From: a virus
Taxonomy: Duplodnaviria; Heunggongvirae; Uroviricota; Caudoviricetes
Length of the DNA stretch: 12,423 nt
Virus record (IMG/VR): IMGVR_UViG_2778261176_000013
Span: 1-12,423 of that record
Strand: one strand, 5' to 3'
This document shows, piece after piece, positions 1-12,423 of this stretch (the first letter of the stretch is position 1; each line of letters starts with the position of its first letter). The notes beneath the pieces are model-generated. The model ran no database searches. It was not told the DNA's origin and worked only from the letters and a program-made list of their open reading frames with translations. The position numbers were made by a program, and so were the translations under genes.

Positions 1-342
1 TTAGCCATTCTGATTTTCCTGCATCATGAGAAATACAATCATGGCGGCGCGGAGAGGTCTGGTATCAAATATTGGTCTTACGCCTTTTGCATCAACACAC
101 CATTCAGTTAACTGGTCTAAGATAGAAATCCTGTGTTTCTCAATAATCGGCCATGAGGCGCTAGGATCATTGCAGTAGTCAGGTAAAGGGTTTAATGGCT
201 CAAAAGTTGTATCAGTATTTCCGTAATACCATTTGTTGGTGTTATTCCCTGATGTTTCCGGTTTACATGCCCAAAGGCCTTTAAAAATTATGTCTCCTAC
301 CATTCTGTTAATTTCAAAATCACTTAACTGTGAATAGTCCAT
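1..342 (-). CDS. Hypothetical prophage protein (113 aa)
   Basis: ORF-track frame 1..345. ATG at 342..340 is preceded by AGGAGGTGA and overlaps the TGA stop of the upstream gene (TGATG). Stop TAA at 3..1. No family recognised. Confidence 0.6.
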
Positions 343-944
343 CACTTCACCTCCTGCGGCGGTTCTGGTAGAGGCATCCAGTGGGTTACGAGAACATATT
401 CGACATCACCCTCAGGACTGTCATAGAACAATCCAGAGTGGGATTCGTAGAATGCGATGTAACGCCACCCTGAATGAGTTTGAACAACAACTTCCTGCCC
501 GTCATCCGGCATTCGCTCACTACAGCTTATCCAACCATCCGGAGTTACCGGAGAGTTGCCCGATAGTTTGTTCAACTTGTAAGTCTGGCTTACAGGTTTG
601 GCACCATGAAGCATGGTGGCGCGGCAGGCGTTCCAGCCTTCATCAAAGCCGACTATGCCATTATTTAAAGACGGACGAGCATCTGGCACCACCGGCACTG
701 GCCTGGCTATATATAGCGGCTGAACATACCAGCCCTTTGATAACCAACTGTCAGCAATGTTTTTACTCCTCGTTATTGCCGGAATACCTAAGCCATTTTC
801 TGAATGCAGCCATGCCACCGGCTCCTCTTCTAGCGATGCCAGAGCAATTTCATAAGCCCGGCGCTCAATATTGTCTCGCACGTCCAGGCTGCCTATGCGT
901 TCTTTGATTTCTTTAATCATTTCTTTGTCGGTTAAAGTTGTCAT
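342..944 (-). CDS. DUF551-like prophage protein (200 aa)
   Basis: ATG at 944 with GAGGA 9 nt upstream. C-terminal motif [10 protein letters not shown] matches my recollection of the DUF551 signature; the family label is tentative. Confidence 0.7.
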
Positions 945-947
945 GTG

Positions 948-1235
948 TTAGTCCTCATCCACTTCAACGCCATCTTTCAGCGTGATGCCGTGCCAATCAT
1001 CAGCCCAACTGGTTAGCCCTGGCGCATCAATGCTAGGCATATAAACGCTTGCAGTGTGGTAGCCCTTATCGTTATCAATGCTGGCAACGTGCTCGCCGTT
1101 GTATGCGCTCAGCGTGTCCAGGACGCTATAAAACTTTCCTCCGGCTGCCCTGAAATCCTTTACAGCCTTCACAAGGCGATTCCACGCTTTTTCCTGTTCT
1201 GGCGTCAGGTCGATTAATTCCTGCAAAGTTGCCAT
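948..1235 (-). CDS. Hypothetical prophage protein (95 aa)
   Basis: Start trimmed to ATG at 1235, which has AAGGAGGG directly upstream and lies 1 nt after the TGA stop of the upstream gene (TGATATG). The ORF-track start at 1265 would overlap that gene. Confidence 0.6.
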   Translation of the reverse strand: MATLQELIDLTPEQEKAWNRLVKAVKDFRAAGGKFYSVLDTLSAYNGEHVASIDNDKGYHTASVYMPSIDAPGLTSWADDWHGITLKDGVEVDED

Positions 1236-1236
1236 A

Positions 1237-1965
1237 TCACCCTCCTTTGATGCCAATGCCAGCAAGCCAGTTTCTTATGCCGATATATTCAGCGTTCCTG
1301 AAACCGCCATTTACATATATAAATGGCAAGCGAAGATTGTGACCATTGGCTGCCAGGTAGTCTTTACAACCCTGTTCGGTGAAACAGCAGGTAACGAATT
1401 CATCAATATCTTTCACAGCAACGCGCCGCCATTTTTCTGGTGGTTCCCGAAAGTTTTCATGAAGTAGTTCGAGACGACGACTTTGGCGTTTATTGGCTTC
1501 ATTGCCATCTTCATCAACCCAGACAATCCTGTCATAGTCATAATCAGCATCAACAACGATTTCGCGCTTTTGATACACACAAAACATAGGGTCTGACGTT
1601 ATTCGATTATCCTGTGTTCGAATATTTTCACCGATGATGCCAAACGAATCTGGTGCAGATTTTGTCTTCAACTCTTCGATACGTTTGCTTTGAGCTTCCA
1701 GTTCATCAAGAAGCGCAAGCATGGTAGCCGGACTGGCTGCGGCGATGAATTCAGCATTTGCCTGCTGTTCCATTTGGAAATCTTCATCGAAACCGCTTTC
1801 AGGATGCGCTCCTTCAATTCTGCAAATGGGAATATATCCAGCAGCCTCGCGATGAATTAGCGCATCATCACCATCAAATCGGCCCTCTCCATATTCGAGC
1901 GACCATACACCACACGTTGCTTTCTCTGCCTTTTCACGCAGTGCCTGATAGTCAATCTTGCTCAC
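1237..1965 (-). CDS. ead/Ea22-like family protein (242 aa)
   Basis: Start trimmed to GTG at 1965, with AAGGAGGAAACC upstream and a GTGA overlap with the upstream stop. Protein begins SKIDYQALREKAEKA and contains LALLDELEAQSKRIEELK, which resembles Ea22-type prophage proteins as I recall them. Confidence 0.65.
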   Translation of the reverse strand: MSKIDYQALREKAEKATCGVWSLEYGEGRFDGDDALIHREAAGYIPICRIEGAHPESGFDEDFQMEQQANAEFIAAASPATMLALLDELEAQSKRIEELKTKSAPDSFGIIGENIRTQDNRITSDPMFCVYQKREIVVDADYDYDRIVWVDEDGNEANKRQSRRLELLHENFREPPEKWRRVAVKDIDEFVTCCFTEQGCKDYLAANGHNLRLPFIYVNGGFRNAEYIGIRNWLAGIGIKGG

Positions 1966-2621
1966 TGGTTTCCTCCTTTGCGAAGCTGTTCCGCACAATC
2001 CAGCAGGGCGTCCGTCGCTTCTTTCACCGTAACGATGTCGCCATCGTCCAGCCCGACAACCGTCGCGTTCTTAACGAACACCGAGCAAAGGTCATTAAAC
2101 GCCTGCGCCCGCACTTCAGCCAGGCATTTGCGAAACTCGGAAACGTACTGTTCGACGCTCATTCCCCAGCTAAGTGGACATTCATTGAATGTTTCGCCTT
2201 CGTGCTCTTCATCAGGTAGCTCTTTGGTAAAGAACTCACGTTCAATGGCGTGGAGTGTGTCAGCAAAACGACGTAAGTTACTCAAACCTGTCGTAATGGA
2301 GAATTCAGGAGCATCACATCCGACGCCCATCTGCTGATAAACGGCGGTTTTGAAGGCCTTCAGCCCCGCATTCTCCGCCGCCAACGCCGAAAACTTCTCG
2401 TGTGCCAACTTAACAGCCGCATCAGCCTGCTTAATTGACTCAATCGCTTTCTGCTGGTCTTCGGCCAGCGCATTAGCACGCACCAGTTGCACTTCCAGTT
2501 GCGTTGCCAAATCGCTGATCAGCTTTGCCACACTGCGCATATCAACGGCACCACATTCTGCTTTCAGTTCCGAAGCCATCTCATGCCCGGCGGCAACTAA
2601 CCCTTTGATATTACTTTCCAT
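1962..2621 (-). CDS. Hypothetical coiled-coil prophage protein (219 aa)
   Basis: ATG at 2621 with GAGGGT 5-6 nt upstream. N-terminal half is Ala/Glu/Lys/Gln-rich (coiled-coil-like). Stop overlaps the start of the Ea22-like gene (translational coupling). Confidence 0.65.
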   Translation of the reverse strand: MESNIKGLVAAGHEMASELKAECGAVDMRSVAKLISDLATQLEVQLVRANALAEDQQKAIESIKQADAAVKLAHEKFSALAAENAGLKAFKTAVYQQMGVGCDAPEFSITTGLSNLRRFADTLHAIEREFFTKELPDEEHEGETFNECPLSWGMSVEQYVSEFRKCLAEVRAQAFNDLCSVFVKNATVVGLDDGDIVTVKEATDALLDCAEQLRKGGNQ

Positions 2622-2682
2622 CTTTACCCTCGCTTATCCACATAACTTATTGATTACATTGATAACTAAAAAGATCGTCGAT

Positions 2683-3027
2683 TCAGAACTCTTCGATGTT
2701 CCAGCCACCACCTGTTTTCTTTGGTTTAACCGTTACCCCGATGATTCGGAACGGATACTGATCTGCGGCGACTTTGGTTTTCACCCTGGCGTCGTCGGTC
2801 CAGAAACCTTTCACTTCGTGCAGTTCCATCTCTCCGGTGGCGAGCATCACAGCGAAATCTGGCGTATAGAACGTGTTGTCAGCTAACCGCAGCTTGATAC
2901 CCTCGAATCGATACCAGGCGATTTCCCCTGCACGTTTACGCAGCTCAAGGTGCTGGCAATACGCAGATTCAGTTTTGTTCATCTGGCCTGTTTTGAGTCG
3001 ACCAAGAGCCTGTATCTGTTTTCTCAT
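2683..3027 (-). CDS. DUF1064-like protein with PD-(D/E)xK-type motif (114 aa)
   Basis: ATG at 3027 with GAGGT upstream. Contains YTPDF...ELHEVKG, a PD-x(n)-ExK arrangement typical of restriction-endonuclease-fold nucleases. DUF1064 assignment is from memory. Confidence 0.65.
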   Translation of the reverse strand: MRKQIQALGRLKTGQMNKTESAYCQHLELRKRAGEIAWYRFEGIKLRLADNTFYTPDFAVMLATGEMELHEVKGFWTDDARVKTKVAADQYPFRIIGVTVKPKKTGGGWNIEEF

Positions 3028-3115
3028 GATTTACCTCTGAGGTAATTAAAAACCACATAAGACATGAAATCAATAGAGTTTATAATATTTTGTTACCTAA
3101 CAGGTAATTATCGAG
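3028..3115 (-). promoter_or_regulatory. Second PL-like promoter-operator cassette between the P-like and DUF1064-like genes
   Basis: Minus-strand reading: operator B (3093-3107), 19-bp gap, -35 TTGATT (3073..3068), 17-bp spacer, -10 TTTAAT (3050..3045), operator A (3031-3045) overlapping the -10 and the SD of the gene starting at 3027. Shares CTATTGA and ATTACCTCA with the PL-like region. Confidence 0.5.
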
Positions 3116-3119
3116 GCGT

Positions 3120-3139
3120 AAAAAAATGCGCTATCGCGC
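3120..3139 (-). terminator. Weak tR2-like intrinsic terminator immediately after the P-like gene
   Basis: On the minus strand GCGC-GATA-GCGC, then A, then T7. The stem is only 4 bp. Confidence 0.4.
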
Positions 3140-3144
3140 TGGTA

Positions 3145-3921
3145 TTACTTGATAAATCCTGCCGCCTTTCCCCGCCTGTATTCCTCCATCAGCCACTGCG
3201 CCGGTGTTATTCCCCCAAGGGTGGCGGCGTTAGGCATGCACCCGAAACTTCGCCCTGGTGGATGGTAAACGTCTCTCCCTGTGTCCGGAGGTGTACTCAT
3301 GGGCTCTGGCTTTGCCTGTATGCTGATCACCGGATCGGGTATCTGCTGTCCGGAAGCCACCTTTTTCGCCCAATCATCGAGCAGCCTGCGCGCGTGTTTC
3401 TCAACCTCAATCTCGCTAAGCTGGCGCTGATACATTGCACGGCGGGTATCACATACGACCCAGTACATAACCGGATGTCGCCACGGGAATCTTTCGGGAC
3501 CACCAGGATATAAACTTTTTTCCTTGCTGTACCGGTGAAACTCCGCCATCACATCGTCAATGGTGACGCCAAGAACCATCTTGCTGTCTTTGCACCACTT
3601 GATGAATTGCCCAGGCGACGGCCAGAACGGAGATTCACTGGCGCGGGCGTGGCGCATACCAGCGTTAACCTGTTCCATTGTTGTGATCCCATTCTCCAGA
3701 AACGCAAGCATCCATTGCTTACGGAATTCATTAAGTTTGTTCTGCTCCCTTATGGTCGAAACGCTTGCAGGAAATGCAGCCTGTAACTGGACAAATAGTT
3801 CATTGAAAATTCTAGCAACCTGCTCCTTTTTGCCATTGCTGTCACGCCGCTCTTCATGCACAGCAACACCATGCTCACGTAAGCGATCGTACTCATTGAG
3901 AAGTTCTGGAGTTGATTTCAT
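3145..3921 (-). CDS. Replication protein P-like (DnaB helicase loader)
   Basis: [44 protein letters not shown] closely parallels the lambda P segment [23 protein letters not shown]...PFLPSPGQFVAWC as I recall it. Start overlaps the end of the O-like gene, as in lambda. Confidence 0.85.
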
Positions 3922-4723
3922 CCCACACCCCTTCTATCCAGTCAGTGTTATTCCAGTCAAGCTCATCGCTTTTCCCGGCGTTTTTTGATTTTCCCCTGAT
4001 ATGATTTACGTGCCTGGCGAATTTTTGTTCCCACTGAACCTGCGTGAACACTTTGCCCTCAGCCATCCAGTAATCCCGGAATGCAGCAAGTTCAGCAGGT
4101 GTAAATTCCGGTTCCGGCAGGGCCGTTCCCCACAGCGCAGCACGCCGTCGAAAATCCGGCGACGGATGCCAGCCATCGGTCATCGGAAATTTCCCAATAG
4201 GTTCACTCAGGCCATCCAGAAATGCAGGTTCTGCCACCTGCAACGGCGTACCGTTCGCTTCACTGGTCGGATCACTCTCGCGCGCGTGCGCTATGTGTGG
4301 GGTTTTATATATATCTTCCTCTTCCTCTTCCTCTGGTAACTCCTTTTGTAACGCTGTTGGCGTTACTTTTTGCGTTACTCGTTTTCGATGCTCTGCCACT
4401 CTTCTATTCGTAAGTGCACGTTTTTTCGATGATTCTCCATTATGTCGCTCAAAGTTTGGAAGAATTAGTTTGCCGTCATGATAAGCAAGCCATCCGACGC
4501 TAATGAGGGCGTCAGCAAATCCTGTAATAAAAGCGAGTCTATCAAGTACTCCTTTTGTAACGCTGCCAGCGTTACCGTCTATTGTTTGCTGGTCAGCCCA
4601 TGCCCATATACGAACCAGCTTTCCAAGAACAGCATCTGGATCAATACCCAGAATTTCTGCTATCTGAAAAATTTCAGGTTTATCAGGAGTGATAACTTCA
4701 ACCTTAATCCAGCTGCTTGCCAT
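3893..4723 (-). CDS. Replication initiator / replisome organiser (O-like)
   Basis: Sits immediately upstream of and overlapping the P-like gene. Start trimmed to ATG at 4723 (AGAGGGGAAA SD); the ORF-track GTG at 4741 is less likely. Has an acidic linker (EEEEEED) and contains palindromic iteron-like DNA repeats. Confidence 0.75.
4341..4383. repeat. Iteron-like palindrome cluster inside the O-like gene (candidate origin element)
   Basis: CTCCTTTTGTAACGCTG-TTG-GCGTTAC, then TTTTT-GCGTTAC. Palindrome GTAACGC/GCGTTAC at 4348-4366 plus a third half-site at 4372-4378. Adjacent to (CG)4 at 4281-4288, AT-rich TTTTATATATAT at 4303-4314 and a (CTTCCT)3 repeat. Confidence 0.5.
4560..4585. repeat. Second copy of the iteron-like element inside the O-like gene
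   Basis: TCCTTTTGTAACGCTG-C-CAGCGTTAC; 19-bp perfect palindrome at 4567-4585. The shared 17-nt left arm is identical to the copy at 4341, but the two copies fall in different reading frames of the O-like ORF. Confidence 0.5.
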
Positions 4724-4916
4724 AGGTTTCCCCTCTTGCACTCTTTAGTGCACAAGCAAATTCATTACGATGGCGGTTGGCGCTATTCATTGCACATTCA
4801 ACACATGTTCCGTTCAGAACATACCTTTCAGAGAGATGGCCGTGACGGCACCGCTTTCCTGTGAAATAGCGATTTAACCCGGCTTTTGCGGCCTCCATTC
4901 TGGTTACTATCTTCAA
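4704..4916 (-). CDS. Small zinc-ribbon protein in the cII position (64-70 aa)
   Basis: Cys/His cluster CRHGH...CVEC. Lies between the cro-like and O-like genes. Start is ambiguous: TTG at 4916 (AAGGGG upstream) or ATG at 4898. Overlaps the O-like start by about 20 nt in another frame. Confidence 0.45.
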
Positions 4917-4994
4917 TTTTTCCGCCCCTTTTTGTTATTGATATTGGCTATTTTGCACAATTGGAAAATTTGATCAACCAGATTTGGTTTTTTA

Positions 4995-5009
4995 TTACCT
5001 TTGAGGTAC
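4995..5009. promoter_or_regulatory. Isolated operator-family site downstream of the cro-like gene
   Basis: TTACC-TTTGA-GGTAC (9/10 half-site match). Preceded on the minus strand by CATATCTATT, the same 10-mer found upstream of the PL-like -35. Confidence 0.4.
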
Positions 5010-5019
5010 GAATAGATAT

Positions 5020-5043
5020 GAAAAGACCGCCGGGTGGCGGTCT
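5020..5043 (-). terminator. tR1-like hairpin between the cro-like gene and the cII-position ORF
   Basis: Perfect 8-bp stem AGACCGCC / GGCGGTCT with a 4-nt loop, followed on the minus strand by TTTT then CATATCTATT. Confidence 0.55.
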
Positions 5044-5064
5044 ACAGAGGGTTGTAGCTGGATA

Positions 5065-5295
5065 TCATGAGTAGAAGAAGTATGCCAGTTCTGCTTTTGA
5101 GCGCAGCCATTGTCTTGTTTTACAGGCTTTAAAAAGCCCATTCATCAATACTTTACCTGGCATTTTGCGCTTACCTGTTAAGTGAGTCTGGATATAGTGA
5201 CTCGTCGTTCCGGCTTCCTGTGCGAAGGCTTCACGCTCATCCGGAGTAAGTGCAAGCCAGTGCTTTTTGAAATCGAAATGTCCGTTATCGCTCAT
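5065..5295 (-). CDS. Cro-like HTH DNA-binding protein (76 aa)
   Basis: Small protein divergent from the repressor gene, with an HTH-like segment REAFAQEAGTTSHYIQTHLTGKR. It is the first gene of the operon containing O and P. Confidence 0.65.
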   Translation of the reverse strand: MSDNGHFDFKKHWLALTPDEREAFAQEAGTTSHYIQTHLTGKRKMPGKVLMNGLFKACKTRQWLRSKAELAYFFYS

Positions 5296-5449
5296 AGCTA
5301 TTGCCTGATATTTATTTCAGATAATAAATATTCACCCATAAGGTAACAAAAATCAAGGATAGTTACCCATGAGGTGCATTTACCTGTTGGGTAATATTGC
5401 TTTAAATTGAATCATCTACTGATTCATATATGAGGCGATTTTCCAGAAA
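5296..5449. promoter_or_regulatory. Divergent repressor/cro control region (OR-like) with three operator-type sites
   Basis: Three sites of the ATTACC-N5-GGTAAT family: 5332-5346 (TCACC-CATAA-GGTAA, 9/10), 5363-5377 (TTACC-CATGA-GGTGC, 8/10), 5380-5394 (TTACC-TGTTG-GGTAA, perfect). Candidate minus-strand promoter: -35 TTGTTA 5349..5344, -10 TATTAT 5326..5321. Confidence 0.6.
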
Positions 5450-6034
5450 ATGAAAAGTATCCAGGACGTCCGCAGGCAAAATCTCAACGACTTGATCGAC
5501 CGTGAATTCAATGGTGTTCAGACGCGGATGGCAGAAAAACTTGGAACTCAGGCAAATCTGGTAAACCGCTGGGCTCTTGGCAAGAAGGTTATCGGCGACC
5601 AGGTTGCGCGAAAAATTGAAGCTGCCGCCAATAAACCACGTAACTGGCTTGATATCGATCGCTCGCTTTCTCAGGAAGGTTTTCAGCCTGTCGGCCCAAG
5701 CGACATTGGTCAGCTGGCGGCTCACAACCTGGAACGCTGGATGAGCGAAAGCCGCGACCTTTCAACTCAGGGAAAACTTCACCGCGCATCCGGCGTCGCC
5801 CAGGTGACAATCAGCCGCCTGTTAAACAATGAGGTCAGTGTTTCCATTTCCACCCTGGAGAATGTTGCATCAGCATTCGGGCGTCACGGCTATGAATTAC
5901 TGATTCACCCGCACGACCCTGCGACCATCAACTATGACCGCTCGCGCTACGCATTGTTACCCGAAACCGAGAAAGCAAAGATCGAAAGTTACATTGAATT
6001 TGTCATCAACCAGAACGAAAAAAACAAACAATAA
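5450..6034 (+). CDS. CI-like immunity repressor with two HTH domains and no S24 peptidase domain (194 aa)
   Basis: Two XRE-type HTH segments (GVQTRMAEKLGTQANLVNRW and ASGVAQVTISRLLNNEVSVSISTLENVASAF). No Ser/Lys autopeptidase region recognisable. Divergent from cro across an operator-rich intergenic region and followed by a strong intrinsic terminator. Confidence 0.7.
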   Translation: MKSIQDVRRQNLNDLIDREFNGVQTRMAEKLGTQANLVNRWALGKKVIGDQVARKIEAAANKPRNWLDIDRSLSQEGFQPVGPSDIGQLAAHNLERWMSESRDLSTQGKLHRASGVAQVTISRLLNNEVSVSISTLENVASAFGRHGYELLIHPHDPATINYDRSRYALLPETEKAKIESYIEFVINQNEKNKQ

Positions 6035-6055
6035 AATCATATTTTTCAGTAAGTA

Positions 6056-6078
6056 AGCCGCCTTCTGGCGGCTTTTTT
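6056..6078 (+). terminator. Intrinsic terminator downstream of the CI-like repressor gene
   Basis: AGCCGCC-TTCT-GGCGGCT stem-loop followed by a T6 tract. Confidence 0.75.
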
Positions 6079-6084
6079 ATTGCC

Positions 6085-6187
6085 TATACTATTACCTAAT
6101 GGGTAATTTTTTTAACTCATATCTATTGACACCAAACCAAATACGCATAATTATTACCTCAACGGTAACAGACCGAGGTAACAAGTT
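6085..6187 (+). promoter_or_regulatory. PL-like early promoter flanked by two perfect operators
   Basis: -35 TTGACA at 6126-6131, with a -10-like CATAATTA at 6146-6153. Operator G (6092-6106) lies 19 bp upstream of -35; operator H (6154-6168) abuts the -10 and covers the likely start site. Confidence 0.6.
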
Positions 6188-6340
6188 ATGCAGTGGAAAA
6201 TCATCAACGGTTGGTACTGCGTTACTGCATGCGGATTCATGAGCTGGAAGTTCCGCACCTTACAGGAAGGCATTAAGTGGGCTTTCGTCAGCAAAGAAGC
6301 TCGCGATGTGGCCAACGATAACGAGATATGGGAGGGCTGA
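6188..6340 (+). CDS. Hypothetical Trp-rich small protein (50 aa), first gene of the PL-like operon; not in the supplied ORF track
   Basis: ATG at 6188 with GAGG 9 nt upstream, 20 nt after operator H. Hand translation: MQWKIINGWYCVTACGFMSWKFRTLQEGIKWAFVSKEARDVANDNEIWEG. Stop TGA at 6338-6340, 2 nt before the next ATG. Confidence 0.45.
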   Translation: MQWKIINGWYCVTACGFMSWKFRTLQEGIKWAFVSKEARDVANDNEIWEG

Positions 6341-6342
6341 TA

Positions 6343-6642
6343 ATGAACGTTAATCAGCAGAAAAATCTTCAAAAAATCATGCTGGCATTCGACAAGGACT
6401 ACCGCCTGTCAGAACAGCTATATGACCGACAAGTTGAACTGATCGAGAGCATCCGGCTTCATCAACTAGCCTCAACTTTCGACGCTGTAACAGGTAAAGG
6501 CGTTCGCCAGGAAGTACTGGAGGCCGCTAAAGACAGTCCAGAGTTCGAAGAACTGATGGATTCCTACCGGCGCGAGGCAATGGCAATTATCGCCCGCTGG
6601 GATCTGGCGGATCAGCTTGATGGACAGAGGGACGCGGCATGA
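6343..6642 (+). CDS. Hypothetical protein (99 aa) in the Gam/RacC position upstream of the exonuclease
   Basis: ATG at 6343 preceded by GGGAGGG. Stop overlaps the exonuclease start (ATGA). No family recognised. Confidence 0.6.
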   Translation: MNVNQQKNLQKIMLAFDKDYRLSEQLYDRQVELIESIRLHQLASTFDAVTGKGVRQEVLEAAKDSPEFEELMDSYRREAMAIIARWDLADQLDGQRDAA

Positions 6643-7538
6643 TGCGGAACGCTGGAATCATGGATAGAACAAAATACATCGGAGGAAGCGATGTTGCAGG
6701 GATTCTTGGAATTAGCCCATGGCGCACCCCGCTTGAGGTTTATCTGGATAAGGTCCAGCCACGTGTCAAACCAGTAGACCCAAGCAAGCAGAAAGTTTTC
6801 ACGCGTGGCCAGCGTATGGAGCCATACGTAATAGACCTGCTTTCTGAGGAAACAGGGATGGAAATCGTTCATCGCGGAAACCGCTATATCCACCGTGATT
6901 ACGATTTTATTGCAGCTGAGATCGATGCAGAAGCAGCGTCAGGCGAGAACATTGAGATCAAAACAGTTAGTCCGTTCAAAGCCAAAGAATGGGGAGAAAT
7001 CCAGACAGATGCAATTCCTGTGCATTACACGGCCCAGGCCATGCACGGGTTGATGGTTACAAACAAACAGGTATGCGTTTTCGGTGTGCTTATCGGTGGC
7101 GACGACTTCCGAATCTATCGGGTTGAGCGTGATGAAGAAACTATCCAGGCGATCTTAGAAAAAGAAATCGCTTTCTGGGACCGAGTGAAAAATCTTAACC
7201 CGCCGGAAGCTACCAGCGTAAGCGATGTATCGCTGATGTTTGAGAAAGATGCCGGGACAAGTATCGAGGCTGACGGAAAGGCACTCTCACTATTCAACGA
7301 TCTACGAGACATGAAGTCACGCAGAAAATTACTGGAAGAAGAAATAGCTATATCAGAAGAGAAGCTGAAGATGTACATGCAAGAGCACTCAGTCCTGACC
7401 CTAGACGGAAAGCCGCTCTGCACATGGAAATCTCAGATCAGCAACAGATTCGACCAGAAGCTATTCCAGTCAGTACACCCTGAGTTATTCGAAAAATTCA
7501 AAACAACAACGACACAACGCGTCTTCAGAATGAAGTAA
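6639..7538 (+). CDS. YqaJ-type phage exonuclease (RecE/Red-alpha functional analogue)
   Basis: N-terminal KYIGGSDVAGILGISPWRTPLEVY is the hallmark of YqaJ-like viral recombinase exonucleases. Immediately upstream of recT. Confidence 0.85.
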   Translation: MMRNAGIMDRTKYIGGSDVAGILGISPWRTPLEVYLDKVQPRVKPVDPSKQKVFTRGQRMEPYVIDLLSEETGMEIVHRGNRYIHRDYDFIAAEIDAEAASGENIEIKTVSPFKAKEWGEIQTDAIPVHYTAQAMHGLMVTNKQVCVFGVLIGGDDFRIYRVERDEETIQAILEKEIAFWDRVKNLNPPEATSVSDVSLMFEKDAGTSIEADGKALSLFNDLRDMKSRRKLLEEEIAISEEKLKMYMQEHSVLTLDGKPLCTWKSQISNRFDQKLFQSVHPELFEKFKTTTTQRVFRMK

Positions 7539-7547
7539 GGAGAAAAA

Positions 7548-8570
7548 ATGTCTATCAATGCACTTAAGGCAGCAGCTACCGGTAACCAAGTTGCACATCA
7601 TAATGAGAAACCAACAACTCTGGCCGGACTTCTGGCAGACCCAAAAATTAAAGCTCAGATGGCTTTGGCACTTCCAAAGCACATGACAGCAGACCGTCTG
7701 GCGCGCATAGCAACCACAGAGATCCGAAAGGTTCCAAAACTTGCATCATGCGACCAAGCCAGCTTCCTGGGGGCAATTATGCAATGTGCCCAATTGGGTC
7801 TTGAACCAGGCGGAGCTCTTGGACACGCTTACCTGATACCGTTCGACAAACGCCAGAAAGTAAATGGAAGATGGGAAACCGTATCTACAGAAGCACAGCT
7901 GATTATCGGCTATCGCGGAATGATTGACCTTGCCCGCCGCTCTGGGCAGATCCTGAGTATCTCAGCTCGTACCGTACATACAAACGACAAATTCAGCTAC
8001 TCATACGGCATGGAAGAAACGCTCGAGCATTTACCTTGCGAAACAGGTGACCGCGGAGAATTAACACACGTTTACGCCGTTGCACGACTGAAAGATGGCG
8101 GAGTCCAATTTGAAGTTATGAGCCGGGCAGCCGTTGAGAAAGTTCGTGCACTGAGCAAAGCCGGTAGCAGTGGCCCATGGGTTGATCACTTCGATGAGAT
8201 GGCTAAAAAAACAGTAATTCGCCGACTGTTCAAATATCTTCCTGTTTCTATTGAAATGCAGAAGGCTGTTGTTATGGATGAGCGCGCTGAAGCTGGACTT
8301 AGCCAAGATAACGCAGCTGTTATCACTGGTGAATATTCCGTAGTTGACGATGAGCGTCAACACCTATCGCCAATTTCAGATTCAGAACGAGAAGAAGCTC
8401 GAGAATATATCATCGCGATACTTAATAGCCTGGATCCATCTGCTGAAGATGCAAAAACGATGTTCAAGCGCGCTGAAAATGAAATTAACACCATGGCTGA
8501 AAAGCTCGGTGATGAATATCACCAAAAATTCATGATGACGCTTAACGATATGCGTCCAGAATTCGAGTAA
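7548..8570 (+). CDS. recT: RecT single-strand annealing recombinase
   Basis: AAGGAG SD. Long stretches match Rac RecT as I recall it: LPKHMTADRLARIATTEIRKVPKL, QLIIGYRGMIDLARRSGQI, THVYAVARLKDGG.QFEVM, EMAKKT.IRRLFKYLPVSIE. Confidence 0.92.
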   Translation: MSINALKAAATGNQVAHHNEKPTTLAGLLADPKIKAQMALALPKHMTADRLARIATTEIRKVPKLASCDQASFLGAIMQCAQLGLEPGGALGHAYLIPFDKRQKVNGRWETVSTEAQLIIGYRGMIDLARRSGQILSISARTVHTNDKFSYSYGMEETLEHLPCETGDRGELTHVYAVARLKDGGVQFEVMSRAAVEKVRALSKAGSSGPWVDHFDEMAKKTVIRRLFKYLPVSIEMQKAVVMDERAEAGLSQDNAAVITGEYSVVDDERQHLSPISDSEREEAREYIIAILNSLDPSAEDAKTMFKRAENEINTMAEKLGDEYHQKFMMTLNDMRPEFE

Positions 8571-8619
8571 CCACCACCGCGGCGCCACGTGCGCCTCACT
8601 GCAACCAAGAGAGGTATTC

Positions 8620-8868
8620 ATGAAAGGTGCATTAGGTAAGAAAGAACTCCTGGCGGTGGTGCCACTGTCATGGAGCACTATCGACCGTATGGAGCGCGCA
8701 GGGGAATTTCCTAAACGCTGGTATATCACCGATAAACGCTGCGCATGGAACCGTGACGAAGTTGAGCGTTGGCTTGATGAACGTCAGGCAGCAAGCCCGG
8801 CAGAGTTCCAGGGTAAAAAGCCTCCTGTTCAGCAACGTGTATATCGTCCTGTGAGCAACGCTGCATGA
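8620..8868 (+). CDS. AlpA/Xis-family small DNA-binding protein (excisionase-like regulator)
   Basis: AGAGAGG SD. Motif SWSTIDRMERAGEFPKRWYITDKRCAWNRDEVERWL resembles AlpA/excisionase winged-helix proteins. Confidence 0.7.
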   Translation: MKGALGKKELLAVVPLSWSTIDRMERAGEFPKRWYITDKRCAWNRDEVERWLDERQAASPAEFQGKKPPVQQRVYRPVSNAA

Positions 8869-8977
8869 GTGCGCTGCTAAGGCACTGGAGCAAATGGTCA
8901 GGATGGTACTTATTCCTGGCCTCTGTTTCAGCATGGCTTTATCTGCTGGCATTAATTTTCAGAGAGGGTTGGATTAA

Positions 8978-9277
8978 GTGAGAAAGTTAAGCCGACTTGA
9001 AAAATATCACATGAACAAGGTTTCAATGCGCAGTCCGTCAAAGATTGTCGCCGTTACTCCTGCGGCGATAGAGATCGAAAAACGCGCGATTGAAAGAGAG
9101 AAAAAAGGGCAGTTCCGCATTGCCGCTCACCTTTGGCTTCAGTGTATGGATGTTGCTTCTGGTGATGTTGAGCGTGCAAGGATCGCGGTTCGCAGGGACC
9201 AATGTATCACAAAAGGTAACGGCCTTCGCCGTGGCGACTATAGCGGCATAGGATGTTGTGGGGTGGTTTATGACTAA
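8978..9277 (+). CDS. PerC-like putative transcriptional regulator (99 aa; start uncertain)
   Basis: GTG at 8978 preceded by AGAGAGGG; internal ATGs at 9011 and 9026 are alternatives. RIAAHLWLQCMDVASGDVERARIAVRRDQC resembles the PerC-family pattern. Overlaps the methyltransferase start. Confidence 0.45.
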   Translation: MRKLSRLEKYHMNKVSMRSPSKIVAVTPAAIEIEKRAIEREKKGQFRIAAHLWLQCMDVASGDVERARIAVRRDQCITKGNGLRRGDYSGIGCCGVVYD

Positions 9278-9920
9278 GAAATACACACTAATCTATGCAG
9301 ATCCACCCTGGGTATACCGGGACAAAGCCGCAGATGGTAATCGCGGTGCCGGTTTTAAATATCCGGTTATGAGTGTGCTGGACATCTGCCGCCTTCCTGT
9401 GTGGGATTTGGCCGATGAAAACTGTCTGTTGGCCATGTGGTGGGTGCCAACACAACCACTCGAAGCACTAAAAGTTATTGAAGCCTGGGGATTCCGTCTG
9501 ATGACCATGAAGGGATTCACGTGGATAAAATGTGGTAGTCGACAACCAGATAAACTGGTTATGGGTATGGGTCACATGACTCGCGCCAATAGTGAAGATT
9601 GCCTGTTTGCGGTAAAGGGAAAACTACCTCCGCGCATTAATGCAGGGATCGTTCAGTCATTTACCGCACCGCGACTTGAGCATTCAAGAAAACCAGATGT
9701 CGTTCGTGAAAAACTTGTGCAATTGTTAGGCGATGTTTCTCGCATTGAACTGTTCGCCCGCCAGTCGTCTCATGGCTTCGATGTTTGGGGTAATCAGTGC
9801 GAAGACCCGGCAGTGCAACTACACCCTGGATACGCGTTGGATATTGGCGGATTAACAAATGCATTCAGCAATTCTCCGCTGTCACCAACAGACAACCAGG
9901 GGCGGGAGCGTGCAGCATGA
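9270..9920 (+). CDS. MT-A70-family DNA N6-adenine methyltransferase (orphan, no adjacent restriction enzyme)
   Basis: N-terminal YTLIYADPPWVY carries the DPPW catalytic motif. ATG at 9270 (GTG at 9258 is an alternative). Stop overlaps the start of the next ORF (ATGA). Confidence 0.8.
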   Translation: MTKKYTLIYADPPWVYRDKAADGNRGAGFKYPVMSVLDICRLPVWDLADENCLLAMWWVPTQPLEALKVIEAWGFRLMTMKGFTWIKCGSRQPDKLVMGMGHMTRANSEDCLFAVKGKLPPRINAGIVQSFTAPRLEHSRKPDVVREKLVQLLGDVSRIELFARQSSHGFDVWGNQCEDPAVQLHPGYALDIGGLTNAFSNSPLSPTDNQGRERAA

Positions 9921-10165
9921 AGCAGATTATGGTTGCACACAACGGCGTCAGGTTTGAAGTCGTCATGGTTTTGACTAAGTTCCACAATGATGAGGTATTG
10001 CACAGAAAAGAAACTGTAACTTACCGTTATAAACACCGCAGTTCAGCTGTTAGAAAATTACGGAAGATTGCGGAAGAACTAAAAAATGATCCTCATCGTG
10101 TTATTGAGGTAAAAGGCAACCCATATAAAATCAAAACTTCAGTGGAGCTAAGACATATGCAATAA
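9917..10165 (+). CDS. Hypothetical basic protein (82 aa), coupled to the methyltransferase
   Basis: ATG at 9917 overlaps the methyltransferase stop, with GGGAGCG upstream. Lys/Arg-rich. Followed by a 324-bp intergenic region with a terminator-like element. Confidence 0.5.
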   Translation: MKQIMVAHNGVRFEVVMVLTKFHNDEVLHRKETVTYRYKHRSSAVRKLRKIAEELKNDPHRVIEVKGNPYKIKTSVELRHMQ

Positions 10166-10296
10166 AATCACGCCTGACGAATCGCGATTATCTCGCTATT
10201 GGTATTGCAGAGATTGCTGGACTCAATGGCGCATGATTTGACAATGCCGCCAGAGCTATCGCATACTGACCGCACTAGAAAACAAACAGCGGTCAT

Positions 10297-10324
10297 CCGC
10301 ACCCGATAGCTTTGCGGCTTTTTT
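10297..10324 (+). terminator. Possible intrinsic terminator after the methyltransferase operon
   Basis: CCGCA ... TGCGG stem (5 bp) with an 11-nt loop, followed by C and a T6 tract. Confidence 0.35.
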
Positions 10325-10409
10325 ATGCCTGCAATCTGGCATAGTCACATCCGTACAAAGGTCGGGTGGAGAGGCGTAATACAACACCCGAAAGGGGAAT
10401 ATGCCCGGA

Positions 10410-10489
10410 GCTACTGTTTGTGCTCTAGTTGACACCCGATCACCAGTTACTAACTGGTTTTCGTAACTAAAAACAAACAGGAGGTCATC
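10410..10489 (+). promoter_or_regulatory. Antirepressor upstream region with TTGACA hexamer and a 15-bp perfect palindrome
   Basis: TTGACA at 10429-10434. Perfect palindrome CCAGTTA-C-TAACTGG at 10443-10457. No convincing -10 hexamer found by eye. Confidence 0.4.
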
Positions 10490-11140
10490 ATGACCAGTCA
10501 ACTCATCCCCGTATTCAACGGCACTATATCCAACGAAACCGCTCTTCTCGTTAATGCCCGTGATTTACACACTTTCCTCGATGTGGGTAAGCGATTTGCT
10601 TCGTGGATTGTCGAACGAATTGCTGAATATGGTTTCGTTGAAAATCAAGACTTTATGATTATTTCCCAAGTTCGGGAAAAAATAGGCAGAGGCCGTCCTG
10701 CAAAAGACTACCACCTCACCCTCGATACAGCCAAAGAGCTGGCGATGGTCGAGCGTAATGAAAAAGGTCGTCAGGTACGACGCTACTTCATTGAATGCGA
10801 GAAACGTTTAAGACAACAAGAAACAAAAGTGGAGAAGGTCTTGTCAGGCTTCATGCCCGCCATTATGGAGGCGATCAAGCTGGAAGACAAAAAAGAATAC
10901 AGTGCCCCACTGAAGCCCGGCTACCGCAGCCTGATTCACTCGCCGTCTGGTGTTCTCGGCCTGACGGAGAACTCACTGCTGATGAATCTGCTGAACCAGT
11001 TACAGGAAGACGGGCACGACGTATCGGGTGCGGCGGCGGAGCTGACCACCATGTTCTGCTACATCGTCGGTGTGAGCAAATGCCTGCGTGATATCCAGAC
11101 CCACGCGGAGTACATCAACGACAAGGCAGGGTTCTTCTGA
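10490..11140 (+). CDS. Phage antirepressor, AntA/AntB N-terminal domain type (216 aa)
   Basis: AGGAGG 7 nt upstream of ATG. N-terminal region (LIPVFNGT...ARDLHTFLDVGKRFASWIVERIAEYGFVENQDF...KDYHLTLDTAKELAMVERNEKGRQVRRYF) matches AntA/AntB antirepressor domains as I recall them. Confidence 0.75.
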   Translation: MTSQLIPVFNGTISNETALLVNARDLHTFLDVGKRFASWIVERIAEYGFVENQDFMIISQVREKIGRGRPAKDYHLTLDTAKELAMVERNEKGRQVRRYFIECEKRLRQQETKVEKVLSGFMPAIMEAIKLEDKKEYSAPLKPGYRSLIHSPSGVLGLTENSLLMNLLNQLQEDGHDVSGAAAELTTMFCYIVGVSKCLRDIQTHAEYINDKAGFF

Positions 11141-11172
11141 CGGGCGGCGGCACATGGATGTGTCGGGCAAAA

Positions 11173-12423
11173 TTATTCCCCCGCCATCCACTTCTCAAAC
11201 TTCGACGGGGAGAACGGAATCAGATCCGTATGCTCCCCGTCAATCCATGAATCAATCATATCGGCCCACTGCTGCAACATGTAGGCGCGCTGTCTGGCGT
11301 ATTCCGCTTTGTTGTATACGGCGCGCACACCTTTCTGCTCATGTGCCAGAGCCTTTTCAATCCAGTCTGAAGGATAACCAGCCTCATGCAACAACGTACT
11401 GGCTGTACGGCGCATATCATGTACAGTGAAGTCCTGAATATGCTCACCATCTTCATTTATTATTTTCACCGTTCTGTCGATCAGAGAGTTCAGCGCGGCA
11501 TTAGATAATGGCTTCCGGAAATTGTAACGACCAGGAACCAGATATTCACTTCCACCAGCGCACATCTGCAACCCGACCAATATATCCTGTGCCTGTTTAG
11601 GCAGGTAAATAACGTGCGCCCGGCTTCCCTTCATGCGGTCTGGAGGAATTGTCCATGTCCATTTTTTAAAATCTATTTCATCCCACGTTGCATTGGTGAA
11701 TTCGCCCTTACGAACCATAGTGATAAGCACCAGTTTTAAAGCCATTTTCATAGTGCCCATAGCACCAATGGCATCCAGCGTGCGGAAGAACAGGCCAATT
11801 TCTTCTGGTGTCAGTGTTCGCTCTCGTGGTTTAAATATGGCGATAGACGAAGGTTTAATGTCAGCCGCAGGATTAAACAAACCATGACCACGGTCATTGG
11901 CGTGACGGTATACGCTACTGATGATCTCCCTGGCCTGCACTGCTGTTGCCCGGCCACCGCGTTCGACAATCCGGTCACACAAATCACGAACCATCGATGT
12001 GGTAATTTCAGCCATCATTTTATTGCCAAGAACCGGAAGTATGTCACGGTCGATCACCGCCTGTTTCATTGCGCGGGTACTGTCAGCCAGGATGACGTGT
12101 TTCATATAACTGTCGGTATGTACCGCAAACGTCTCGGCACCACGAATCTTTTTGATACCGTCACGTTTAGCCGCAGCCGGTGACTGGCCTGCTTTAAGCA
12201 GCTTCTTTGCAGCAATCAGTTCTTCTCGCGCTTCTGCCAGGCTGATACCGTCACGCCCATACTGCCCGATTACCAGTGTTTCGCGGCGACCGTTGATACG
12301 GTAGTCATAGCGAAACGAGACCGTGCCTGACGTAAGCACAGCTACATACAGCCCGTCACGATCGGAGACCTTGTACAGTTTGTCCTGCGGCTTGAGGTTT
12401 TTTAATTTTGTATCGGTAAGCAC
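11173..12423 (-). CDS. Tyrosine integrase, P4-type (N-terminus truncated by window edge)
   Basis: N-terminal LTDTKLKNLKP...YKVSDRDGLYVAVLTSGTVSFRYDYRINGRRETL is typical of P4-like integrases. C-terminal catalytic region has HDMRRT and AHEQKGVRAVYNKAEY (conserved Tyr). The ORF runs to the last base of the window. Confidence 0.9.
   Translation of the reverse strand: MLTDTKLKNLKPQDKLYKVSDRDGLYVAVLTSGTVSFRYDYRINGRRETLVIGQYGRDGISLAEAREELIAAKKLLKAGQSPAAAKRDGIKKIRGAETFAVHTDSYMKHVILADSTRAMKQAVIDRDILPVLGNKMMAEITTSMVRDLCDRIVERGGRATAVQAREIISSVYRHANDRGHGLFNPAADIKPSSIAIFKPRERTLTPEEIGLFFRTLDAIGAMGTMKMALKLVLITMVRKGEFTNATWDEIDFKKWTWTIPPDRMKGSRAHVIYLPKQAQDILVGLQMCAGGSEYLVPGRYNFRKPLSNAALNSLIDRTVKIINEDGEHIQDFTVHDMRRTASTLLHEAGYPSDWIEKALAHEQKGVRAVYNKAEYARQRAYMLQQWADMIDSWIDGEHTDLIPFSPSKFEKWMAGE

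Follow-up and report, generated by a model that had tools for sequence, protein, structure and literature searches.

A candidate replication origin formed by two separated half-site clusters within the initiator gene of a TL-2011b-like prophage

The DNA considered here, 12,423 nucleotides (nt) of a virus of the Caudoviricetes (positions 1 to 12,423 of the record IMGVR_UViG_2778261176_000013; this whole stretch is referred to as the window), is ~99% identical to Escherichia phage TL-2011b, and of 5426 complete E. coli genomes, 123 carry the element in full. Its minus strand carries the gene of a protein of 276 amino acids (aa) that matches PHROG 2509, "replication initiation protein" (E=3.5e-129), and that is annotated in the E. 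coli genomes only as "DnaT-like ssDNA-binding domain-containing protein". Within this gene, two clusters of repeated 7-bp half-sites and a polypurine/AT-rich module next to one of them make up a candidate replication origin (Table 1). The N-terminal domain of the initiator (N-domain, aa 1-114) matches no Pfam family even at E<=1 and no NCBIfam family, and belongs to a family of 6959 clusters at 50% identity (E<=1e-3). Its AlphaFold2 model consists of helices and a beta-hairpin (predicted local distance difference test score, pLDDT, 72.6), and a structure search with this domain returned weak fold matches only, many of them winged-helix domains. At the other end of the protein, the C-terminal 70 residues match PF17948, the DNA-binding domain of DnaT. 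The N-terminal two-thirds are unrelated to E. coli DnaT, and the role of the window protein is that of a phage initiator and not of a primosome-restart factor. Indeed, the NCBIfam model for DnaT (NF002770) scores 93.7 bits over aa 171-252 only, which is below its equivalog cutoff of 201 bits, so that an assignment as DnaT primosomal protein I was rejected, the PF17948 domain being all that is present.

A repeat search of the window revealed a 28-nt direct repeat on the plus strand, with one copy at 4339-4366 (ACTCCTTTTGTAACGCTGTTGGCGTTAC) and the other at 4548-4575 (ACTCCTTTTGTAACGCTGCCAGCGTTAC). The copies match at 25 of 28 positions (89%), are the same over their first 18 nt and start 209 bp apart. 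The initial annotation of this DNA had recognized both, and all the sequences that it quoted are present, but it placed the second copy at 4560-4585, about 10-12 nt too far to the right, and its spacing of about 220 bp has to be replaced by the measured value. As it had stated, each copy contains a 19-bp palindrome, of the form GTAACGC-N5-GCGTTAC; the one at 4348-4366 has 7-bp arms and a 5-nt spacer, while the one at 4557-4575 is perfect with 9-bp arms, and no third site in the window matches the full pattern with zero mismatches. Since 209 is not a multiple of three, the copies are read in different frames and encode the peptides VTPTALQKE and GNAGSVTKG, respectively. A further GCGTTAC was correctly reported at 4372-4378, whereas the degenerate fourth half-site, GTAACTC at 4336-4342, had been overlooked. 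Cluster B (gene nt 346-388) is thus a symmetric convergent array with exact 12-bp steps between its four half-sites, and together with cluster A (gene nt 149-167) it gives six 7-bp half-sites. On both strands of the 12.4-kb window GTAACGC occurs seven times, as against 1.06 expected, a count reached in none of 200 shuffles (0/200), and five of the seven copies fall within the 228 bp from 4348 to 4575.

Table 1. Coordinates of the initiator gene and the elements within and beside it (window positions), and half-site clusters in distant homologues (gene nt)
Feature	Position	Strand	Sequence or layout	Remarks
Initiator gene, 276 aa, containing the candidate origin	3893-4723	-		open reading frame (ORF) and translation; PHROG 2509
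N-domain coding region, aa 1-114, presumed iteron-binding	4381-4723	-		only part common to all GTAACGC loci
DnaT-like DNA-binding domain coding region, aa 179-249	3977-4189	-		PF17948, E=6.6e-19
Lambda-P-like helicase loader gene	3145-3921	-		PF06992 Phage_lambda_P, E=1.7e-55; overlaps end of initiator gene, directly downstream
Candidate iteron cluster A	4557-4575		perfect 19-bp palindrome GTAACGCTGCCAGCGTTAC; half-sites 4557-4563, 4569-4575	in N-domain coding region; codes G-N-A-G-S-V-T
Candidate iteron cluster B	4336-4378		four half-sites, > > < <	in inter-domain linker codons
Cluster B half-sites	4336-4342; 4348-4354; 4360-4366; 4372-4378		GTAACTC (degenerate); GTAACGC; GCGTTAC; GCGTTAC	
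Polypyrimidine run on plus strand, polypurine (GAAGAG)n on coding strand	4314-4334			adjoins cluster B directly; codes acidic linker EEEEEED
AT-rich tract, candidate DNA-unwinding element	4303-4314		TTTTATATATAT	flanked by GGGG 4299-4302
(CG)4 alternating tract	4279-4286			~50 bp past last half-site
Vibrio phage 1.211.A	gene nt 165, 198 and 358, 372		TGTCACA	
Ralstonia phage Raharianne	gene nt 141-178 and 357-384		GTCTACA	
Salmonella phage epsilon15	gene nt 54-79 and 333-358		GTCCGCA	
Pseudomonas phage phiPSA1	gene nt 65-79 and 354-389		GTCCGCA	
Ralstonia phage RPZH6	gene nt 55-78 and 342-354		GTCCGCA	
Phycisphaerae metagenome-assembled genome (MAG; L026)	gene nt 73-95 and 421-454		GTCCGCA, 11-bp steps	

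Relatives of the gene were compared in a first alignment of the window with Enterobacter phage BUCT554, Klebsiella phage ST11-OXA245phi3.2 and a Rac-like element, and in 22 further loci from species-representative genomes that were fetched with an N-domain profile. The initial annotation had named absence of the repeats from close homologues as a refutation; this is clearly not the case, since they are present in more than 20 loci (47-95% identical). The arms of the half-sites do not change in nearly all of these, and the 5-bp spacers between them are free to differ. With few exceptions, the loci of the clade, which include Samsonia, Rahnella, Pantoea, Serratia, Erwinia, Yersinia, Pectobacterium and Shigella/E. 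coli, have one palindrome at gene nt ~149/161 and a second at ~338-392. Xanthomonas phage CP2 and Pseudomonas phage PAN70 (~49-54% N-domain identity) retain exact GTAACGC half-sites at both locations, if not always the full palindrome. Across the 22 loci, the step from one half-site to the next is 12 bp in 80 of 104 adjacent pairs and 23 bp in a further 15; the orientation is convergent throughout, and additional half-sites stand in direct orientation, which is the behaviour of an array and not of hairpins alone. The separation of the clusters by ~200 bp, which had been noted as unusual, is indeed present, but is a conserved property of the family and no oddity of the window copy. The distance from A to B is 209 bp in the window, or ~19.9 helical turns, and 189, 207, 219 and 231 bp in relatives; a fixed helical phasing between the clusters was dropped, since these distances keep no phase. 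Contigs assigned to Ignavibacteriae, Novipirellula (Planctomycetota), Lysobacterales, Akkermansia and Phycisphaerae (L020, L021, L023, L024 and L026) also encode N-domain homologues, and exact GTAACGC palindromes are present in L020, L021 and L023; this spread reflects either a very broad host range of the family or contaminated or mis-binned contigs.

The claim that the repeats are conserved at the level of DNA and not of protein is borne out by the invariant arms and variable spacers, by frozen synonymous positions and by the change of frame in cluster B. When the codons of 20 homologues were aligned, the four degenerate ones within the arms of cluster A proved frozen (GGT 19/20, AAC 20/20, AGC 17/17 and GTT 20/20), whereas other conserved Gly, Val, Leu and Arg codons of the same gene use three to six codons each, the commonest at a frequency of 0.25-0.75, and the conserved Gly and Val codons outside the arms use three or four (commonest 0.35-0.65). 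Codon bias was ruled out as the cause, since other Gly, Val and Ser codons of the gene vary. The AAA Lys codons at positions 100-101 are the sole other codons as uniform as the cluster A arms; the Lys-Lys-Arg codons AAA AAA CGG (TCGAAAAAACG) with their flanks (window 4396-4426) are nearly invariant as DNA in the 20 homologues, and the uniformity at K100-K101 may reflect a Lys codon preference or another constraint on the DNA. The peptide encoded by cluster B is V-T-P-T-A-L-Q in the window and in BUCT554, the Klebsiella phage and Samsonia (L001, L002 and L005 for the latter three), and N-A-x-S-V-T, in the frame of cluster A, in the remaining loci of the clade, with the same DNA arms throughout. 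Family-wide, N-A-x-[S/G]-V-T occurs in 114 of 145 representatives (50% identity) near residue 51 and/or at residues 114-143, with a hypervariable x, and the alternation of Ser and Gly corresponds to AGC/GGC, so that GCGTTAC stays intact. The frozen codons, the change of frame and the family-wide motif indicate that N-A-x-[S/G]-V-T is the imprint of a DNA site. A coding-level explanation for the repeats is ruled out by the differing frames and the frozen synonymous sites, and the half-sites are under purifying selection at the DNA level, independent of the encoded peptide.

The half-sites go together with the N-domain. When the neighbouring proteins of the window were compared with the loci by tblastn, the N-domain alone was common to those that carry GTAACGC, while the C-terminal domain, the loader (P-like, DnaC-like or DnaB), the upstream genes and the repressor differ among them. 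In distant homologues the two clusters are kept within the 5' ~460 nt of the gene and the half-sites are replaced (Table 1). The N-domains of the GTAACGC group are 47-72% identical to one another; those of the epsilon15, phiPSA1 and RPZH6 group are 61-72% identical internally and 31-42% identical to the GTAACGC group. As judged from these comparisons, the type of half-site largely tracks the N-domain clade.

Cluster B is followed, in coding orientation, by CAGAG, a polypurine repeat, an ATAT(A/T)-rich stretch and a C-run, and in some members by (CG)n. In the window this module reads ...GAGTTAC CAGAGGAAGAGGAAGAGGAAG ATATATATAAAA CCCC ... CGCGCGCG, and in epsilon15 ...GCGGAC CAGAGAAGAGAAGAGAAGAGAAG ATATTAAA CCCC ... 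CGCGCGCGCG. The local GC content of the window drops to 0.40 at the AT-rich tract, which lies exactly where the initial annotation had it; the (CG)4 reported beside it is also present, but at 4279-4286 and not at 4281-4288. A polypurine tract after cluster B is seen in every clade with identified half-sites. Its period is 6 bp in the window and 5 bp in several other loci, indicating that what is conserved is an asymmetry of purines and pyrimidines between the strands and not the acidic peptide. The ATATAAA(A/T) element and the C-run behind it are kept across the clade of the window and in epsilon15, and counterparts of the window tract, (CG)4-5 over the three phages and ~50 bp past the last half-site, are found as CGCGCGCGCG at the equivalent distance in epsilon15 (L032 ~1629-1638) and as GCGCGCG in BUCT554. 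Alternating CG tracts are prone to form Z-DNA. The gp42-type replication initiation protein of epsilon15 (Uetakevirus) thus resembles the window initiator in its N-domain family (35% identity), its DnaT-like C-domain, the two-cluster > > < < layout and the nearly identical polypurine, ATAT, CCCC and (CG)n module, and differs from it in the half-site (GTCCGCA versus GTAACGC) and in the position of cluster A (gene nt 54-96 versus 149-167); furthermore, no P-like loader gene follows the epsilon15 gene, and no origin is annotated within the stretch of the epsilon15 record that was examined. Differing half-sites joined to a common module are the pattern expected of a specificity element coupled to a generic unwinding element, and the polypurine/AT tract at 4299-4334 is a candidate unwinding region.

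The arrangement recalls the origin of phage lambda, which lies midway through gene O with an AT-rich tract adjacent to it; each lambda iteron is a 19-bp imperfect inverted repeat, and two iterons with the AT tract are the minimum for unwinding (PMC7466680). In the annotated lambda record the four iterons occupy nt 349-433 of O and are followed by a purine-rich, AT-rich stretch. The lambda analogy drawn in the initial annotation therefore holds in position (nt 349-433 versus 346-388 for cluster B) and in the adjoining purine-rich/AT-rich tract. Both candidate and lambda origin lie within the initiator gene at the linker between N- and C-domain, both have dyad symmetry of ~19 bp and a purine-asymmetric AT-rich tract directly downstream, and in both a P-type loader gene comes next; a P-family gene in this place is not universal in the family of the window initiator, other members having DnaC-like or DnaB neighbours. 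By contrast, lambda has four tandem 19-bp iterons ~20-24 bp apart, whereas the window has 7-bp half-sites on a 12-bp lattice (> > < <) in two separate clusters, or three in many relatives, ~200 bp apart, one of them within the N-domain coding region. The proteins differ as well: the C-domain of the window initiator is DnaT-like and its N-domain is without detectable similarity to O, with no Pfam match to Phage_rep_O (PF04492) at E<=1 and an hhalign probability of 0.3% for the N-domain profile against O. The name "O-like" given to the gene thus applies in the functional sense only, and the resemblance to lambda is functional and positional, no more.

Taken together, the sequence comparisons make it likely that the repeats are origin iterons bound by the initiator, and that the replication origin of this TL-2011b-like (Uetakevirus-type) prophage lies within the gene of its own initiator. 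Its layout is most likely lambda-like, split into two iteron clusters and built on an uncharacterized initiator family. The N-domain would recognize the GTAACGC half-sites, with dimers on the convergent pairs and further protomers on the direct-repeat half-sites 12 bp away, so that both cluster A (4557-4575) and cluster B (4336-4378) would be occupied. Initiator oligomers at A and B, and at an upstream cluster where one is present, could bridge or wrap the intervening DNA, and this bridging could place the polypurine/AT tract at 4299-4334 under torsional stress and lead to its melting. The DnaT-like C-domain and the downstream P-like protein would then bring in the host DnaB.

Several points weigh against this reading. 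The searchable literature contains no experimental binding or origin activity for any member of the family. The inter-cluster distance varies (189-231 bp in the clade and ~280-350 bp elsewhere) without a fixed helical phase, which makes a bridging of A and B speculative. The co-inheritance of sites and N-domain is partly automatic, because the sites lie within or beside the N-domain coding sequence; the replacement of half-sites in distant homologues is more informative. The Phycisphaerae MAG (L026) has GTCCGCA, yet its N-domain is only 31-34% identical to those of epsilon15, phiPSA1 and RPZH6, and the homologues in an Akkermansia MAG (L024) and in Cobetia phage Carin1 (L034) have no convincing repeats. 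A more far-reaching version is conceivable, though we regard it as tentative: a distinct origin design, in which 7-bp half-sites, set on a lattice of 11-12 bp, form two or three separate arrays within the coding sequence of the initiator itself, including its DNA-binding domain, and initiator oligomers bridge the arrays into a loop that fires the polypurine element and throttles initiator transcription, coupling supply to firing; N-A-x-S/G-V-T would in that case be an imprint of the DNA site and not a functional peptide.

Each of the rival explanations accounts for fewer observations than an origin does. The palindromes could be autoregulatory operators, instead of or besides being an origin, through which the initiator, bound within and shortly before its own gene, blocks or throttles its own transcription. 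Autoregulation by way of inverted repeats is known from the Rep proteins of iteron plasmids, and the sites of the window are inverted repeats; in many relatives a third palindrome precedes the start codon by 19-43 bp, and an array bound within the gene would hinder RNA polymerase. However, this upstream copy is absent from the window, BUCT554, the Klebsiella phage and Samsonia (L001, L002 and L005), the coupling of cluster B to a polypurine/AT module, for which an operator has no use, is tight and universal, and the position of the cluster is that of the lambda origin. An operator function is compatible with an origin, but as the explanation of the sites we consider it unlikely.

A much smaller chance is given to the palindromes acting as nucleic-acid hairpins, be it as mRNA structure, antisense intrinsic terminator or DNA cruciform, and not as protein sites. 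A simple terminator scan lists both on the plus (antisense) strand, site B being followed by TTTTT, and the single strands fold with z-scores of -3.9 to -4.2. Yet site A has no T-run and the terminator match is confined to the antisense strand, the stems, of 7-9 bp and about -7 to -8 kcal/mol, are short, and no Rfam family matches at the repeats. Moreover, the arms never vary, so that there is no compensatory change in support of pairing, the extra direct-orientation half-sites at 12-bp steps cannot pair, and distant clades swap the half-site sequence as a unit. It is just as improbable that the conserved blocks are recombination joints of phage mosaicism at the linker between N- and C-domain, with no binding role. 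The homology of the window to BUCT554, the Klebsiella phage and the Rac-like phage does begin or stop at the linker, and C-terminal domains and loaders are swapped among the loci, but cluster A is placed centrally in the N-domain coding region, where there is no module boundary, and conservation is limited to 7-bp arms with free spacers, without extended blocks. It also holds at ~49-53% protein identity across host orders, with synonymous sites otherwise saturated, and palindromy, 12-bp phasing and the clade-specific replacement of half-sites would be left unexplained. Least probable of all is that a host factor or another phage regulator (the repressor, Cro or the 70-aa upstream protein) binds the sites: binding by the initiator is itself deduced from sequence and the inverted repeats of the immunity region also contain GGTAAC/GTTACC, but the latter lack the CGC extension and are spaced differently, loci with the sites in common have unrelated repressor, cro-like and upstream genes, and phages of related enterobacterial hosts have different half-sites that largely track the N-domain clade (GTAACGC in E. 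coli TL-2011b, GTCCGCA in Salmonella epsilon15), which argues against a host factor.

The proposed origin iterons can also be compared with those of plasmids of the pPS10, F, R6K and P1 type. There, inverted repeats near the start of rep can serve as operators, while direct repeats are the origin iterons and lie beside an AT-rich unwinding element. In these plasmids the initiator binds repeated sites, as the window initiator is predicted to do, and recognition may be by a winged helix in both. Plasmid iterons are, however, direct repeats of ~17-22 bp outside the rep coding region, in contrast to the 7-bp half-sites within coding sequence found here, and a Pfam search detected neither Rep_3 nor another plasmid Rep domain in the window initiator. 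The Rac prophage, with YdaU and oriJ, likewise has an initiator-like gene upstream of a helicase loader. YdaU of E. coli K-12 differs in being a DUF1376 protein (PF07120, 2.4e-26), a family to which the window protein had no match in the same run; the window N-domain has no similarity to K-12 YdaU/DUF1376 (hhalign probability 0.2%), and GTAACGC is absent from the K-12 Rac ydaU, which is a different allele. The linker of K-12 ydaU has three exact copies of TGTTCAAACA, two direct and one inverted (L004 4512-4577; NC_000913.3 ~1421511-1421576), which could be iterons of the Rac origin oriJ; their enrichment in ydaU is modest, the count being equalled in 7 of 200 shuffles with one mismatch allowed. 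In MN652886 ("Escherichia phage Rac", host E. coli 442/2; L003), the gene labelled ydaU belongs to the family of the window initiator, with 70% N-domain identity and GTAACGC sites, so that the name covers two unrelated initiator types, that of MN652886 and the DUF1376 type of K-12.

The genes upstream of the initiator are a 70-aa ORF, a cro-like gene and, in divergent orientation, a repressor gene with a helix-turn-helix (HTH) motif, and the replication region of the window constitutes a lambdoid early-right operon. A strong terminator-like hairpin is located at 5024-5043 on the minus strand (AGACCGCC-ACCC-GGCGGTCT, then TTT), between the cro-like gene (5065-5295) and the 70-aa ORF with the replication genes. 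Its placement resembles that of lambda tR1 and suggests that the replication genes may need antitermination or read-through past it. The intergenic region of repressor and cro contains inverted repeats at 5342-5394, namely GGTAAC (5342-5347)...GTTACC (5362-5367) and TTACC-TGTTG-GGTAA (5380-5394), which have GTAAC in common with the half-site and are probably the immunity operators. The repressor-like protein itself (194 aa, 5450-6034, plus strand) matches HTH_3 at aa 106-147 and, weakly, an HTH-like family (YdaS_toxin) at aa 21-61, and may contain two HTH units. The sole Rfam match in the window is a full-length sRNA-Xcc1 (RF02221) at 10360-10449 on the plus strand, with 65.2 bits against a gathering score of 53.

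An origin within the initiator gene is the classical lambdoid design and as such of a kind already known. What appears to be undescribed is the initiator family as an origin-binding family, the lattice of 7-bp half-sites and the conserved split with one cluster inside the coding region of the DNA-binding domain; the searchable literature holds no published description of this origin, and an earlier mention in subscription journals is possible. The family is found among gamma- and betaproteobacterial phages and prophages and has members in contigs that were assigned to Planctomycetota and Verrucomicrobiota, and annotation pipelines label its genes only "DnaT-like", "primosomal protein I" or "hypothetical". 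If confirmed, the present findings would provide the origin and the recognition code for a very common initiator family that has no Pfam model, together with a rule for finding origins: two convergent half-site arrays in an initiator gene, the second followed by a polypurine/AT tract. GTAACGC, GTCCGCA, GTCTACA and TGTCACA would then be natural specificity variants for dissecting protein-DNA recognition. It would also follow that the constraint of a DNA-binding site shapes protein sequence, even within the domain presumed to read that site. Finally, a confirmed origin would bear on the replication-incompatibility of co-resident prophages and may aid the construction of ori-based vectors.

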